Below, in pieces: positions 1-7,410 of a stretch of DNA of 7,410 bases (the first letter of the stretch is position 1; every line of letters starts with the position of its first letter). The stretch is from positions 1-7,410 of the IMG/VR virus record IMGVR_UViG_2617270946_000020; one strand, 5' to 3'. A program made the position numbers and the translations under genes. A model generated the notes under the pieces. That model was given only the letters and a program-made list of their open reading frames with translations. It was not told where the DNA came from and did no database searches. Source of the DNA: a virus. Taxonomy: Duplodnaviria; Heunggongvirae; Uroviricota; Caudoviricetes.

Positions 1-609
1 TCAGCCAGCAGGCCATCCGACAGCATAACTGCGGATCGCCTTCAGGTCTGTCAGCGCCTCAACCTCGGCTTTCATCTGCAACTGCCGTGTATTAATCTCC
101 ACTCCCTTCGCAAACATCGCCTGCTCTGTCGCATCTGCCAGCGCAATTATCTCCGCCGCCGTCACCGGCACCACATTATTATCCCCGTCGGTCCAGGCAA
201 AACCTTCCGGAAGACGGTTATTCTCTGCCATCAGGCGTGTCGTGCTTATCCTGGACAACGTCTTCTTGCCGTAATCCCAGTTCCTTCCGTTGAATTCCAT
301 CACGTATTCCATACTCTCCTGCACATCACGCCAGATATTAATCTCTTCCCGTTTCGCCGCCTTTGCCGCTTCCAGTACTGCTTCCGTGGCAACAAAGGCA
401 CTCACGCTTCCGTACGTTCCTGCTGTCAGCCCAGACCACAATGCTTTTCCGTGTTCTGTATTATCCGTTTCCGTTGCAGTATACGGCAGCCATACCTGTT
501 CCCCTTTTTCATTCACCGCGTCTTCAAACTGCACCTCACAGTTTATCCCGCCATATTCGTTGCTGGCTGCATTTCGTACTGCAAGAATCTCTTTTCCCTT
601 ATCCACCAT
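1..609 (-). CDS. Tail-fibre-associated protein of unknown function; possibly a tail fibre assembly/chaperone (Tfa-like) by position and size
   Basis: Open frame ending with a TGA stop at 1-3. A perfect AGGAGG Shine-Dalgarno (minus strand, about 611-618) lies in the 10 nt between the stf stop (TAG, 618-620) and ATG 609-607, which is followed by GTG 606-604 (spacing 2 nt to the ATG, 5 nt to the GTG). Product about 201 aa, similar in size to lambda Tfa (194 aa), but the canonical Tfa C-terminal motif is not evident. The frame stays open upstream to a stop at 724-726, so the ORF track reports 1..696 from a GTG. Confidence 0.5.
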   Translation of the reverse strand: MVDKGKEILAVRNAASNEYGGINCEVQFEDAVNEKGEQVWLPYTATETDNTEHGKALWSGLTAGTYGSVSAFVATEAVLEAAKAAKREEINIWRDVQESMEYVMEFNGRNWDYGKKTLSRISTTRLMAENNRLPEGFAWTDGDNNVVPVTAAEIIALADATEQAMFAKGVEINTRQLQMKAEVEALTDLKAIRSYAVGWPAG

Positions 610-617
610 GACCTCCT

Positions 618-2012
<1,395 letters not shown>

Positions 2013-2023
2013 ATTCACCCCAC

Positions 2024-2049
2024 AAAAAAGCCCGCCTGAACCGGCGGGC
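2024..2049 (-). terminator. Rho-independent terminator downstream of the lom-derived ORF
   Basis: Minus-strand sequence GCCCGCC-GGTTCA-GGCGGGC-TTTTTTG: a 7-bp GC stem, 6-nt loop and T6 run, lying between the stop at 2077-2079 and the stf start. Confidence 0.7.
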
Positions 2050-2076
2050 TGTCATAACACTGTGTTACCTGGCTAA

Positions 2077-2712
2077 TCAGAATTTATAACCGATACCCAC
2101 GATGAAACCGTCAGTGCGCCAGTCACCACTGCCGGAGCCTTCATAAGCAATATCAATGGCCACGGATTCGGTCGGGTTAAACTGCACGCCAGCCCCCCAC
2201 GCCAGAGACGTGTTGCTGTGGCAACCGTCATCACTTCCGGTCAGCACGTCGTGCGTTTTCCCCTTGTTGTCAGTTACGCGGAGATAATCCCCGGAGAAAG
2301 TCGACACACGGCTGTAAGCCACACCCGCCATCGCATACGCGCTGAACCATTCATTCACGCGTACAGACGGCCCCGCCATCACGCTGAACCAGCGGTTACG
2401 CACGGAATCTTCATGCCAGCGGGTATCTCTGTAGCGCGTTTTTTGCTCATCCTCAGCATTGGCATAACTGAAGGACGTAAGACGGGCATACACCGCCTCC
2501 GGTGCCGTGTCATCACCGGCAATACGTATCTGGTACCAGCCTTCGTTCATCTGACGGCGAAAGCCCGGCATCTGCATCGACAGGGCGCGAATGGCTTCCG
2601 CTGCCGTGTTCACATACAGGCTGAGGCGGCGGCCAAATCGTTGTAAATCCCCGTGAAGGCAGATGCGTGCCAGTGGCGGTGACGCCAGACAGAATGCGTT
2701 CGTCGTTGCCAT
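2077..2712 (-). CDS. Chimeric ORF: N-terminal about 78 aa of tail assembly protein I fused in frame to the C-terminal about 130 aa of a Lom/Ail-family outer-membrane beta-barrel protein (J deleted)
   Basis: N-terminus MATTNAFCLASPPLARICLHGDLQRFGRRL...EGWYQIRIAG matches lambda gpI as I recall it (MAATHTLPLASPGMARICLYGDLQRFGRR...DGWYQVRIAG). C-terminus ...SVMAGP...SAYAMAGVAYSR...AYEGSGSGDWRTDGFIVGIGYKF matches lambda Lom. There is no signal peptide, and no J-like ORF exists between K and stf. Junction estimated near 2470-2485. Confidence 0.8.
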   Translation of the reverse strand: MATTNAFCLASPPLARICLHGDLQRFGRRLSLYVNTAAEAIRALSMQMPGFRRQMNEGWYQIRIAGDDTAPEAVYARLTSFSYANAEDEQKTRYRDTRWHEDSVRNRWFSVMAGPSVRVNEWFSAYAMAGVAYSRVSTFSGDYLRVTDNKGKTHDVLTGSDDGCHSNTSLAWGAGVQFNPTESVAIDIAYEGSGSGDWRTDGFIVGIGYKF

Positions 2713-3353
2713 TTTTCGGAATACCTCTCCCGTTTACTCAGTTGTTCAGGCAGATGGTGAAGCAGCTCACCGTTGCCGCAGTAAATGGCGGCATGGTTCG
2801 GTACCGAAGCACCAAAGCAGCACAGCAGAATATCGCCCGCCTGTGCAGAGGACAGGGGCACCCGGTAAAAGCCTGTGACCGCCATATTGTCCAGGTAAAG
2901 GTTCTGACCGTTGCGCCACCAGTCATCCTCGCGATGAAAATCCGGCATTTCAGTCCCCGCCAGATGATAAGCATCCCGAAACAGCGTGTAACAGTCCGTC
3001 ACCCCGTGCTCAAAGCGCCGTCCTGTCAGATGTGGCACACAGCGGAATTTGTGAATGTCACCCCGGCAGACCAGCCACCAGGGCAGTGCGCTTTTTATCT
3101 GCAGCCGCCGGTCAGCCTCGCTCAGCCAGGGCAGCCCACCGGGATGACTGTGGACCAGTGCCACAATCTCCCCCTGCATCTCTGCCCGCAGCCAGTCTTC
3201 CGGTGCGATACGAAAATACGCCTCCGGCTCTGCAGAAATATTCACACAAGGGATATACCACTCCCCCTCCGGCGTGCTTATCACGAAGCCGCACGACTCC
3301 GCAGGCGCACACCGCCGGGCATGCGCCAGAATCGCTGATTCAGTCTGTGTCAT
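2610..3353 (-). CDS. K: Tail tip assembly protein K (JAMM/MPN metalloprotease-like plus NlpC/P60-like domains)
   Basis: Begins MTQTESAILAHARRCAPAESCGF... as I recall lambda K. Contains the JAMM motif HSHPGGLPWLSEAD (H-x-H-x7-S-x2-D) and an NlpC/P60-like Cys/His region (DCYTLFRDAYH ... NHAAIY). Start is 10 bp after the L stop. The 3' end overlaps the I-derived start by 103 nt in another frame. Confidence 0.88.
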   Translation of the reverse strand: MTQTESAILAHARRCAPAESCGFVISTPEGEWYIPCVNISAEPEAYFRIAPEDWLRAEMQGEIVALVHSHPGGLPWLSEADRRLQIKSALPWWLVCRGDIHKFRCVPHLTGRRFEHGVTDCYTLFRDAYHLAGTEMPDFHREDDWWRNGQNLYLDNMAVTGFYRVPLSSAQAGDILLCCFGASVPNHAAIYCGNGELLHHLPEQLSKRERYSEKWQRRTHSVWRHRHWHASAFTGIYNDLAAASACM

Positions 3354-3363
3354 AAACCGGGAT

Positions 3364-4062
3364 TTACTGCGAAAGTTTATTAATGGAAAGGAAACCGCCA
3401 AAATTGCCGACATTCCTGCGCAGTTCACACCCGCGCATGCACTTGCTGCATCTGTCCTTACGGATATCCGTGGTGGGTTTATCGAACTCATCCGCCACAG
3501 CCCCGCCCGTGTAACCACACTCATCAGAGCGGTAGGTCCACATACAGGTGTTCGCCAGCATGATACGACCGGGAAACAGCGCCCCGTCCGTCTCGGTCGG
3601 TGTGGCCAGCACAAACGAGGCCGTCATGGCTGTCAGCTGCGACATCTGCTCCACCACCCAGCGGTCACTCAACTCCTGCTCCGGGTCCGCCGCCGGATTG
3701 CCCGCAACGAAATTCACCGCATCCAGAAAACGGGCATACACCCGGCGGCGGACCACCGTGGCCCCCACCAGACTCTGCAGGTCTTCCGCCATCCCGGTGA
3801 CCAGACCGAACAGATTGGACACCGTCAGCGACGGTCTGGCACTGCTGCCCTTCCCGCTCATCTCAAAGCCGCTGCCATCAATCGGGTACGCCTGGTACTT
3901 CCGCCCCTGCCAGGTGACCGGCTCCCCTTTTTCATTCAGCTCATTACAGAAAAAATACCGCTCACCACCCTGCACCGTCAGGTCAATTTCCCAGAGTACC
4001 ACCCGCGGTGACTGCTCTGATTTAACCGACTCGCTCAGACTTTCTTCGTGAATATCCTGCAT
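3364..4062 (-). CDS. L: Minor tail protein L (tail tip complex)
   Basis: 232 aa, the same length as lambda L. MQDIHEESL...VVLWEIDLT...GERYFFCNE...GEPVTWQG...FGGFLSINKLSQ matches lambda gpL end to end; the C-terminal cysteine cluster is retained. Confidence 0.9.
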   Translation of the reverse strand: MQDIHEESLSESVKSEQSPRVVLWEIDLTVQGGERYFFCNELNEKGEPVTWQGRKYQAYPIDGSGFEMSGKGSSARPSLTVSNLFGLVTGMAEDLQSLVGATVVRRRVYARFLDAVNFVAGNPAADPEQELSDRWVVEQMSQLTAMTASFVLATPTETDGALFPGRIMLANTCMWTYRSDECGYTGGAVADEFDKPTTDIRKDRCSKCMRGCELRRNVGNFGGFLSINKLSQ

Positions 4063-4095
4063 CAGTTCACCACCTGCTTAAACTCCGCGCTGAAC

Positions 4096-5788
<1,693 letters not shown>

Positions 5789-5964
5789 GAAACAGTCTCA
5801 CAATAAATACAGGGGCCGACATGAAAGTGCCCGAAAATGACTTTTTTAGGCGTTTTCATGTCGGACCTTTTACGGATTCGATATTAGAAAAAACAAATAG
5901 TTATGTTCGAGAAGTACCGACATGATTTTCCCCGGAAAATTTTCATAAATAGCGAAAACCCGCG
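5789..5964 (-). promoter_or_regulatory. cosB-like terminase binding region between cosN and the Nu1 start
   Basis: Read on the minus strand it begins CGCGGGTTTTCGCTATTTATGAAAATTTTCCGG, matching the lambda left end immediately after the cohesive end. It carries three copies of a CGACATGA-type motif, two direct and one inverted (plus-strand about 5816-5824, 5856-5864, 5917-5925). The cosN-to-Nu1-start distance (about 177 bp) is as in lambda. Confidence 0.7.
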
Positions 5965-5976
5965 AGGTCGCCGCCC
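5965..5976 (-). other. cosN cohesive-end site (12-nt GGGCGGCGACCT on the minus strand)
   Basis: Plus-strand aggtcgccgccc is the exact reverse complement of the lambda 12-nt cohesive end GGGCGGCGACCT. The flank on the other side (minus strand ...GTGGGTCCTTTCCGGCGATCCGGGCCGTTACG) resembles the lambda right end (...CGGGTCCTTTCCGGTGATCCGACAGGTTACG). Confidence 0.85.
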
Positions 5977-6012
5977 CGTAACGGCCCGGATCGCCGGAAA
6001 GGACCCACGAAA

Positions 6013-6027
6013 TGATAATGATTATCA
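6013..6027. promoter_or_regulatory. Fur-box-like 7-1-7 palindrome TGATAATGATTATCA
   Basis: Perfect inverted repeat TGATAAT-G-ATTATCA, matching the 7-1-7 Fur operator model (tGATAATnATTATCa); about 15 of 19 positions match the classical 19-bp Fur consensus. Lies about 40 bp from cosN in an AT-rich region and about 155 bp upstream of the plus-strand ORF starting at 6183. Confidence 0.35.
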
Positions 6028-6182
6028 TCTATATAAGGTTTATCACAACATGTGTGTACGCCATCAAACCACGAGAAATAATCAATTATGACGCAGGTAT
6101 CGTATTGATTGATCTGCATCAAATTAACGTAAAAGCAACTTCAGATAATACAAATCAGCAACACTGAATATGGGGAAACATT

Positions 6183-6383
6183 ATGTCATCAAAGAACAGA
6201 ACCCGCAGAACAACAACCCGCAACATCCGATTTCCAAACCAGATGATTGAACAAATTAACATCGCTCTTGATCTGAAAGGTTCAGGAAACTTTTCAGCGT
6301 GGGTTATTGAAGCCTGCAGGAGAAGGCTGGCAACAGATGCAACGCATCTGCGCCCGGCCAGCATGAAAAATAACGAGAAATGA
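6183..6383 (+). CDS. Small basic protein, YlcI-like (DUF3950-type) by recollection; possible DNA-binding protein
   Basis: The 66-aa ORF MSSKNRTRRTTTRNIRFPNQMIEQINIALDLKGSGNFSAWVIEACRRRL... has an Arg/Thr-rich N-terminus and a motif I recall from small YlcI-family proteins found next to Nu1 homologues (nohD) in E. coli cryptic prophages. It is transcribed opposite to the late operon. Confidence 0.6.
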   Translation: MSSKNRTRRTTTRNIRFPNQMIEQINIALDLKGSGNFSAWVIEACRRRLATDATHLRPASMKNNEK

Positions 6384-6514
6384 ACGTTCGGCTACAGGAG
6401 CAGGTACCCACTGTCCTCCAACAATATTTCATCTTCATATCCGACGGAACAAGACTTACCCTGCCGGGATGTACAGAATAACAACAGAGTGATAATTAAT
6501 TTCTGATGAAATAA

Positions 6515-6847
6515 TCAGGGTGCAGAAGGACTAAAGATAAACGTTTTCTTCACGCCTTTACACGGCCTGTCCTTCTCAAATCGCCATTTTGCCATCGCCT
6601 TTACAACCTGCTCATCAAACAAATGGTGCGGCTCTGAACGGATAAACTCAATTCGGGTGACAGTACCATCAGCACCAATATCAAACTTCACATCAACCCG
6701 TCCCTTTATATAATTTGCCGCTGCATAGGCCGGATATTGTGGTAATGCCTTAACCAACTGTCGGGGCATATCTGTTTTATGTTGCGTACAGCCCATAACC
6801 AGAGAAGACAACAAAATAATTAACGGAAGGTTTCTTTTCATTTTCAT
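6515..6847 (-). CDS. Lipoprotein with TonB C-terminal-like domain
   Basis: Signal peptide with lipobox (MKMKRNLPLIILLSSLVMG-C, Thr at +2) followed by PQYPAYAAANYIKGRVDVKFDIGADGTVTRIEFIRSEPHHLFDEQVVKAMAKWRFE, which aligns with the E. coli TonB C-terminal domain as I recall it ([56 protein letters not shown]). The start could be ATG 6847 or ATG 6841; the ORF track starts at GTG 6856. Confidence 0.7.
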   Translation of the reverse strand: MKMKRNLPLIILLSSLVMGCTQHKTDMPRQLVKALPQYPAYAAANYIKGRVDVKFDIGADGTVTRIEFIRSEPHHLFDEQVVKAMAKWRFEKDRPCKGVKKTFIFSPSAP

Positions 6848-6861
6848 TCCCGGCACAGATA

Positions 6862-6878
6862 AGAATAAGTCTTATTCT
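6862..6878. promoter_or_regulatory. Perfect 8-1-8 palindrome AGAATAAG-T-CTTATTCT immediately upstream of the TonB-like lipoprotein start; candidate operator
   Basis: Exact inverted repeat 15-31 bp upstream of the start codon. It overlaps a possible -10 hexamer (TAGAAT on the minus strand) and has GATAAG/AATAAG half-sites loosely resembling Fur hexamers. Confidence 0.35.
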
Positions 6879-7185
6879 AACAATGCCACCCTGTCGGTCA
6901 TCAATCCTCTGCTTAATGGCAACGACAATTATCCGACTTAAATCACAAATCAGACACATGACATAACAGAGCTTGCGAGGTAACACATCGTCCGGTTTCT
7001 TCCACCATCGCACCGGACCAGCGACCATGAGGGGACAACGCCGCGCTCCGTTAACGCGGTAAACCCCGGTGTGTATCGTTTTTGATTATCCCCGCACACT
7101 CGCGCAGAGGAGTCTCCCGGTCGGGCTGCGGTCTCTGTTAATGCGGGGATACGGCGACAATACCGCGCATGGTTAATAAGGTCGC

Positions 7186-7410
7186 TCAACACACTGGCTG
7201 TAATGCAGCGGATACCATGCGGCATTTAGCGGCATTCATCGTACACTCAACGGTTAGCTCTTCATTCGTGGCATTCACCTGAAAGGTCCGGGAGTGTAAT
7301 TGCGTACATTTACCACTGAACGAACCTTCAACAAGAACACGACCACGCTGCAAAATACGGAACGGAATTGTTCCCTGAAAAGGCTTTACGGTTACCAGTA
7401 ATTTCTTCAT
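7186..7410 (-). CDS. Hypothetical 74-aa protein; the ORF reaches the window edge, so it may be 5'-truncated
   Basis: Open frame MKKLLVTVKPFQGTIPFRILQRGRVLVEGSFSGKC...; the ATG sits exactly at 7408-7410, the last three bases of the window. I do not recognise any homology. Confidence 0.3.
   Translation of the reverse strand: MKKLLVTVKPFQGTIPFRILQRGRVLVEGSFSGKCTQLHSRTFQVNATNEELTVECTMNAAKCRMVSAALQPVC

Follow-up and report, generated by a model that had tools for sequence, protein, structure and literature searches.

Fur sites that the literature treats as promoter elements belonging to genes of cryptic prophages lie 6 bp from the packaging-termination signal cosQ in phage lambda itself, and likewise beside cosQ in phages 21, phi80, and N15, which raises the question of why one of the highest-ranking Fur sites is retained by lambda at its packaging signal. 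A mundane explanation would be an insulator of the terminase operon, while another would be an unrecognized host factor in packaging. We approached this question from one copy of the element, a palindrome in a 7,410-nt stretch of Caudoviricetes DNA (positions 1 to 7,410 of IMG/VR record IMGVR_UViG_2617270946_000020), and this whole stretch is referred to below as the window. The explanation that we favor, with a probability of roughly 0.6, is that the palindrome is a genuine high-affinity Fe-Fur operator that has been inherited in the right-end/cos module of lambda-family phages and damps transcription around cos. Within this explanation, the output of Fur, i.e., the repression of transcription around cos, is only partly supported.

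A Fur-type palindrome adjoins a lambda-type cos site

A motif search over the whole window revealed TGATAATGATTATCA as a single copy with no mismatch to TGATAATNATTATCA (Table 1), and comparison with the 7-1-7 motif TGATAATnATTATCA showed identity at 14 of the 14 specified positions. After dinucleotide shuffling of the window, 0.02 matches were expected per shuffle at a threshold of ≤2 mismatches, and any match at all was seen in 4 of 200 shuffles. Against the 19-bp Fur consensus GATAATGATAATCATTATC, the site scored 15/19 on both strands (6008 to 6026 on the plus strand and 6014 to 6032 on the minus strand), which was the maximum in the window, the runner-up reaching 13/19. Among the dyad-bearing sites of the survey described below, the symmetric flanks, AAA before and TTT after the dyad, were conserved across cos contexts, and these flanks extend the symmetry in the way that overlapping Fur hexamers predict, which fits Fur as the ligand. 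Thus, the dyad is a member of the Fur-box family by every sequence criterion applied here, and the exact 7-1-7 palindrome reported in the earlier note was confirmed, along with its place. It had been put about 40 bp from cosN, on the cosQ side and upstream of a plus-strand YlcI-like open reading frame (ORF), and we found the dyad to start 6 bp past cosQ and 36 bp past the cosN cohesive-end sequence, with that ORF at the expected location.

The perfect 7-1-7 core, the match of 15/19 on both strands, and the symmetric A/T flanks are features that the window site has in common with the canonical Fur box (the 19-bp consensus above and the 7-1-7 model tGATAATnATTATCa). Canonical Fur boxes, however, typically overlap the promoters of iron-uptake or iron-storage genes, whereas the window site lies beside a packaging signal and no conserved promoter.

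Table 1. Features around the palindrome in the window
Feature	Position	Strand	Basis or description
Dead terminase ORF	5318–5788	−	Nu1 residues 1–42 (PF07471) fused to gpA nuclease-domain C-terminal part (PF20454, residues 32–115)
cosB	5808–5938	−	R repeats with CCGACATGA cores plus IHF site I1; repeat families D1, I1, and I3; layout as in the annotated cosB of phage 21
cosB, R1	5816–5837		
cosB, R2 (inverted)	about 5851–5872		
cosB, I1	5891–5903		AAACAAATAGTTA; IHF-consensus match
cosB, R3	5917–5938		
I2-like AT-rich segment	5939–5964	−	cosN-cosB interval; alignment-identical to lambda; name according to PMC4856287
cosN 12-nt cohesive-end sequence	5965–5976	−	GGGCGGCGACCT on minus strand, AGGTCGCCGCCC on plus strand; same in lambda, Qin, and DLP12
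R4-like repeat containing cosQ	5991–6006	−	TCGCCGGAAAGGACCC; direct repeat D3, in common with R3 segment
cosQ heptamer, packaging-termination signal	6000–6006	−	GGGTCCT on minus strand, AGGACCC on plus strand; direct reading; aligns to lambda cosQ (lambda 48473–48479)
Extended Fur site	6008–6032		Two 19-bp boxes overlapping on opposite strands, both scoring 15/19; could accommodate two Fur dimers
Core Fur 7-1-7 dyad, TGATAAT-G-ATTATCA	6013–6027		Exact motif match; same 15-mer in lambda and Qin
Sigma-70-like promoter match toward cos/Nu1	6021–6048	−	−35 TTGTGA (6048–6043), 16-bp spacer, −10 GATAAT (6026–6021), formed by the dyad's right half
YlcI/YnfO family (DUF3950) ORF, 66 aa	6183–6383	+	PF13132 and NF041551; transcribed away from cos
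Lipoprotein with TonB C-terminal domain, 113 aa	6515–6856	−	Domain search; between lysis genes and cos

The cos site next to the dyad is of the lambda type, looks intact, is read on the minus strand, and lies inside a badly deleted prophage. The place equivalent to its cosQ is annotated as such in the records of phages 21 and phi80, and the phi80 record names the R4-like region "cosQ; aka R4 region." The cores of the cosB repeats differ in type from those of lambda (CCGACATGA versus CGTTTCC). Since the terminase gene is destroyed in the window, cos is a fossil here; this copy of the dyad would still bind Fur. Pfam searches further identified a portal N terminus fused to a head-tail attachment domain (4096 to 5118), past which came tail L, a K-like JAB/NlpC protein, and a tail-fiber gene; tail protein I was found fused to Ail/Lom (2077 to 2712). 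The region from 1 to 5788 is a patchwork of in-frame deletions. A search of the complete-genome collection found the whole window in one place in 0 complete Escherichia coli genomes, and Rfam yielded no RNA family in the entire window.

Orthologous copies of the palindrome are bound by Fur in E. coli

Alignment revealed the same 15-mer at the same place in phage lambda and in the Qin prophage of E. coli K-12 (between nohA and ynfO), while the DLP12 prophage (between nohD and ylcI) carried TGATAATAATTATCA, which differs from the window 15-mer at the center base only. On these alignments, the window palindrome is the orthologue of the published K-12 Fur sites "nohA" (Qin) and "nohB/nohD" (DLP12), and its identity as a Fur site is not new. 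The K-12 sites lie 232 to 233 bp upstream of the start of the Nu1 homologue and 6 bp from cosQ, and the center of the window dyad is 232 bp upstream of the Nu1 start, at the same offset as that of nohA. The flanking cos and YlcI/YnfO sequences are homologous as well. The window represents another prophage than those that carry nohA and nohB, one with more extensive deletions, and the bases next to its dyad differ slightly from theirs.

In the study by Chen et al. (2007; PMC2189734), nohB (25.3 bits; coordinate 579824) and nohA (22.3 bits; coordinate 1634624, position −233) were among the strongest K-12 Fur-site clusters, compared with 11.1 bits for the weakest site in their model; these scores belong to the orthologues, of which nohA has the same 15-mer as the window. 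The K-12 orthologues were described there as clusters of 3 to 4 overlapping Fur sites over 25 to 28 bp, and 150 nM Fur shifted the nohA oligonucleotide in gels (PMC2189734). After conversion of the published coordinates to the current K-12 record, nohA fell exactly on the dyad center and nohB within about 1 bp of it. Both sites were recovered by Fur titration in vivo: a nohA fragment was picked for Fur binding by Vassinova and Kozyrev (2000), and for nohB the credit goes to Stojiljkovic et al. (1994) and their Fur titration assay.

Genome-wide binding data point to the same element. The Fur ChIP-seq data of Myers et al. (2013) have a summit at 1634625 in MG1655, 1 bp from the dyad center, and a ChIP-exo peak was reported for strain CFT073 at 1424699 to 1424711 under iron-replete conditions (Gao et al., 2023). 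We found the latter peak to overlap a variant dyad of the phage 21 type, TGATAATTATTCTCG, 5 bp from cosQ. The MG1655 ChIP-exo peaks in the same study included none at either K-12 copy; the two copies are near-identical, so reads may have been lost to multi-mapping. Taken together, Fur binding is well supported for the orthologous copies, one of which has the identical core, and would by orthology extend to the window copy. The Fur-box reading of the earlier note is thus borne out, in that the sequence is orthologous to sites bound by Fur both in vitro and in vivo.

As a Fur box, then, the window site is ordinary, a further copy of the long-known nohA and nohB sites. The published work on these sites treats them as promoter elements of nohA and nohB and does not mention cos, and our literature search, both for a link between Fur and cosQ and for a Fur box together with terminase and prophage, found no relevant paper. 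The conservation of the dyad beside cosQ while the neighboring genes change is what the present analysis adds, and this addition is modest and testable.

The palindrome is inherited with cos

For a survey of cos sites of the lambda type, viral contigs were searched for the combination of cosN and cosQ, with no requirement for the dyad, and reference loci were added; this gave 135 sites among the matches listed, a redundant set. Redundancy was reduced by clustering of the flanks, and the resulting single-linkage clusters are a rough count of independent contexts. A dyad with ≤3 mismatches lay 3 to 8 bp beyond cosQ in 98 of the 135 sites among the matches listed (73%), most commonly at a spacing of 6 bp, and each of the 37 dyad-less sites among them showed ≥6 mismatches, none having 4 or 5. 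Random 35-bp windows of the same loci reached ≤3 mismatches 0.6 to 0.7% of the time. Exact copies of the motif in the survey loci (about 1.15 Mb) numbered 65 among the matches listed, and all but one of them (64) adjoined cosQ. Clustering of the flanks from 45 to 445 bp beyond cosQ yielded 22 unrelated contexts among the matches listed, with the dyad present in 14 and absent from 8. In a conservation profile, the dyad was the last conserved block before homology collapses; this profile was built on sites preselected for the dyad, so it marks where conservation ends rather than that conservation exists, and the unbiased measures are the 98 of 135 sites (among the matches listed), the 14 of 22 contexts, and the null of 0.6 to 0.7%. 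Of 5426 complete E. coli genomes, 4169 contain a 91-bp segment comprising cosN, cosQ, and the dyad, and no annotated feature covers this segment.

These frequencies bear directly on the idea that the palindrome is a chance product of AT-rich DNA, or that it only looks like a Fur box and is instead recognized by IHF or some other nucleoid protein; coincidence and IHF were possibilities that the earlier note had raised. The region is indeed rich in AT, and IHF is a known host factor at the I1 and I2 segments of cos. Coincidence, however, does not account for a dyad at 73% of the cos sites (among the matches listed plus the reference loci) against a chance level of about 0.6%, and the IHF consensus WATCAANNNNTTR gave no match overlapping the dyad at ≤1 mismatch, while the same search recovered I1. 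With Fur binding documented on the orthologues in addition, the survey frequency and the IHF search effectively refute this explanation, which we consider barely credible.

Named phages gave the same picture. Phage phi80 carries the exact dyad, TGATAATTATTATCA, 5 bp from cosQ and within its annotated "cosQ; aka R4 region," and phage 21 has the same variant dyad as CFT073. In N15, the dyad CGATAACTATTATCG (L126, 1317 to 1331) shares bases with the stop codon of gene 59, a gene that is read toward cos, and part of the Fur-type site is hence coding sequence in this phage. In both N15 and phi80, the only neighbor of the dyad is a gene that reads toward cos and ends at the dyad, and none is transcribed away from it. 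Lambda, 21, phi80, and N15 thus retain the dyad beside cosQ, though they differ in cosB packaging specificity.

The dyad is nevertheless not a universal part of lambda-type cos, as it is missing in 37 of the 135 sites among the matches listed. It was found neither in the cos of Gifsy-1 nor at either site of elements in which a Nu1-family gene lies between two cos sites in inverted orientation, and its absence from Gifsy-1 and from these satellite-like cos sites means that cos function is not strictly dependent on it. The earlier note had proposed to compare the equivalent position in other lambdoid cos regions, and had taken presence of the same palindrome at all lambda-type cos sites, regardless of neighbors, to imply a packaging role. 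The comparison showed the palindrome to be conserved with cos (98 of 135 among the matches listed), including 34 sites that lack YlcI. The stronger proposition held for the most part, with the dyad present at those sites next to varying neighbors, and failed for Gifsy-1 and several cos classes; since it holds largely but not fully, a packaging role is not implied, nor does the result speak against one.

The divergent YlcI-type gene does not explain the conservation

Alternatively, the dyad could serve the divergent YlcI/YnfO (DUF3950) gene in particular, as an operator that provides iron-responsive control of this accessory gene. In the survey, YlcI lay within 3 kb at 64 of the 98 dyad sites among the matches listed, always divergent and transcribed away, and wherever YlcI was present the dyad accompanied it (64 of 64 among the matches listed). 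The 155-bp spacer between the dyad and YlcI is highly conserved from lambda to the window, and in CFT073 the loss of fur has its strongest derepressing effect on the divergent unit by the dyad (see below). Almost all YlcI-linked sites, however, fall into one homologous flank cluster (C0), so the association of YlcI with the dyad is not independent evidence, and the other 34 dyad sites, which span at least 12 flank contexts among the matches listed, have no YlcI. Because the dyad is kept at these 34 sites, it goes with cos and not with YlcI. A gene that leaves the dyad is also lacking in N15 and phi80, and, among the matches listed, mechanical ORF calls had the nearest ORF past the dyad reading away from cos in some contexts and toward cos in most others. 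In the window, the dyad sits about 155 bp upstream of the YlcI ATG, and no recognizable promoter was found beside it on the plus strand; in K-12 fur deletion data, ylcI and ynfO were not derepressed. Iron control of the adjacent YlcI-like gene, which the earlier note had offered as one meaning of the palindrome, hence fails to explain its conservation, and we regard a YlcI-specific operator as unlikely.

Another neighbor is the TonB-C lipoprotein gene, which was present at 11 sites with the dyad in 11 of 11 (among the matches listed). The iron-repressed stx1 promoter is an example of Fur-regulated accessory genes in lambdoid prophages, and such genes likewise place a host iron sensor on prophage DNA downstream of the lysis genes. 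Fur boxes of the stx1 type, however, sit in the promoter of a specific cargo gene, whereas the dyad of the window type stays with cos while the cargo changes.

Transcription around cos and the effect of fur deletion

In the operator explanation that we favor, iron-loaded Fur would bind the dyad when Fe2+ is available, and two Fur dimers would probably cover about 25 bp (6008 to 6032), including −10-like GATAAT hexamers on both strands. Fur bound in this manner would damp transcription that starts in or crosses the AT-rich cos-proximal spacer, whether it heads for the terminase genes or, in the opposite direction, for the YlcI-type gene, and iron limitation would relieve the damping.

To assess the promoter content of the region, we scanned 5780 to 6450, from the Nu1 start to past the end of YlcI. 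The sole sigma-70-like match in this region was the minus-strand one in Table 1, and this count was not above that in shuffles. By eye, no comparable −35 element at the right spacing was seen in sequences of the lambda, K-12, or phage 21 type. A sigma-70 promoter that overlaps the dyad and is conserved across contexts was hence not found, as only the subtype of the window has one, at chance level.

Expression data are available for the orthologous loci. In the CFT073 fur deletion (Gao et al., 2023), genes on the divergent side of the ChIP-exo peak were upregulated (log2 changes of +2.95 for C_RS26755 and +2.33 for C_RS07340), and so was the terminase/head operon on the other side (+1.34 for C_RS07355, the terminase large subunit; +1.57 for C_RS07365; and +2.13 for C_RS07370). 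These data suggest two-way damping around cos, but the derepression could also be indirect, resulting, e.g., from prophage induction in the fur mutant. In the MG1655 fur deletion (Gao et al., 2023), nohD, nohQ/nohA, ybcW, and ydfO were unchanged. Against the proposed operator output stand the absence of a conserved promoter overlapping the dyad, the MG1655 fur deletion with no derepression, the W3110 fur deletion with lowered expression of neighboring genes, and the MG1655 ChIP-exo data with no peak at either K-12 copy.

The two K-12 strains differed in this respect: DLP12 and Qin genes near cos, unchanged in MG1655, were down when W3110 lacked fur (Gao et al., 2023, Dataset 3), and the genes around both cos sites showed log2 changes of −5.1 (ynfO), −5.3 (ybcW), −3.7 (ybcV), −2.0 (ydfO), and −4.1 (appY).

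A possible role in packaging or as a Fur decoy

Since cos is the only constant neighbor of the dyad, we kept a packaging-related role as the main rival to transcriptional damping. In such a role, the dyad with Fur would be an accessory cos subsite, acting as a brake, or as a host factor that aids recognition of cosQ and cosN at termination in the manner of IHF at I1, or protecting or marking the cosQ end. The dyad is co-linear and co-inherited with the lambda cos subsites (cosQ/R4, cosN, I2, and cosB with R1 to R3 and I1) and, like I1, is recognized by a host protein. During packaging, the motor encounters it immediately ahead of cosQ, it lies 3 to 8 bp from cosQ whatever is found beyond (among the matches listed), and its position as the last block before the collapse of homology and its retention in lambda, 21, phi80, and N15 are in line with such a subsite, all the more as no conserved promoter accounts for its conservation. 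Furthermore, the 238-bp "cos" fragments used in experiments (lambda 48446 to 182) contain the dyad, so that in the literature searched its contribution was not found separated from that of cosQ. Unlike the lambda cos subsites, however, the dyad is not universal, functional cos being found in its absence in Gifsy-1 and in two-cos elements like the phage-inducible chromosomal island (PICI) EcCICFT073, and it is not named as a subsite in the packaging literature searched or in the curated records of phages 21 and phi80, which annotate cosQ and no Fur site. The distance from the dyad to cosQ is also not constant, and its variation, about half a helical turn, speaks against a fixed contact between Fur and terminase. 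We therefore judge an accessory cos subsite improbable.

A role that needs neither a promoter nor terminase would be that of a Fur decoy, in which the hundreds of copies present in lytic growth soak up Fur and thereby switch on host iron uptake for the phage. A site of this kind requires no local promoter, which would agree with conservation of the dyad where no promoter is conserved, and the orthologous sites were discovered as multicopy clones that titrate Fur and derepress a Fur-controlled reporter. The decoy idea is entirely inferential, however; a decoy has no need to be placed beside cosQ, and our search found no expression data on the Fur regulon during lambda growth. We consider it very unlikely.

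The cosQ end is the first DNA to enter the cell. Fur sitting 6 bp ahead of cosQ might conceivably serve as a termination brake or architectural factor, or act on the first-injected end, or the site might act as a Fur decoy during replication, a set of roles to which we give little credence. If one of them were true, phage packaging or early infection would be coupled to the iron status of the host. The Fe-Fur operator damping transcription around cos remains the reading that we prefer.

Other observations at cos loci

In phage 21 and CFT073, the TonB-C lipoprotein family occupies the same place as in the window, and lipoprotein genes with a TonB C-terminal domain in this region hint at an iron theme. 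Just upstream of the window gene, a further perfect palindrome, GAATAAG-A-CTTATTC (6863 to 6877), overlaps a predicted extended −10 promoter (region 6863 to 6901). It was rejected as a second Fur box, because phage 21 and CFT073 retain its left half only and it is thus not conserved as a dyad. In phi80 (L127, NC_021190), an ORF about 1 kb before cos, x171.8 (161 to 391), is annotated as "putative Fur-regulated protein"; its 76-aa product gave no Pfam or NCBIfam match.

When genome contigs were scanned for cosN plus cosQ, 120 matches were obtained, of which 6 were real cos sites and 114 were chance matches in GC-rich genomes. Three contigs (L154, L168, and L215), from assemblies including a Chromatiales metagenome-assembled genome and Oceanobacillus profundus, carried a cos identical to that of phage lambda over the stretch read, and this most likely reflects contamination with lambda control or vector DNA.

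Loci with two inverted lambda-type cosN-plus-cosQ sites (L004, L011, L013, L028, L040, L042, and L077; e.g., 3767 to 3808 and 4664 to 4706 in L013) had cosB directed inward at both sites, toward a 184-aa Phage_Nu1-family gene that separates them, with lambda-E-type capsid genes adjacent, and they resemble the PICI EcCICFT073, which is reported to have cos1 and cos2. In an attempt to identify the 184-aa Nu1-like protein as an Rpp protein, a PDB sequence search returned no match, and Pfam returned Phage_Nu1 only. In L013 (3744 to 3766) and in flank cluster C2 (12 sites among the matches listed), an intrinsic terminator hairpin, GCCGGAGAAATCCGGC, with a T run lies directly before cosQ, in the usual place of the dyad. 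The C2 hairpin is oriented with late transcription, and one of the two cos sites in the double-cos elements has such a hairpin. The presence of a terminator in the position of the dyad hints that this position may shield the terminase genes against transcription arriving from upstream.
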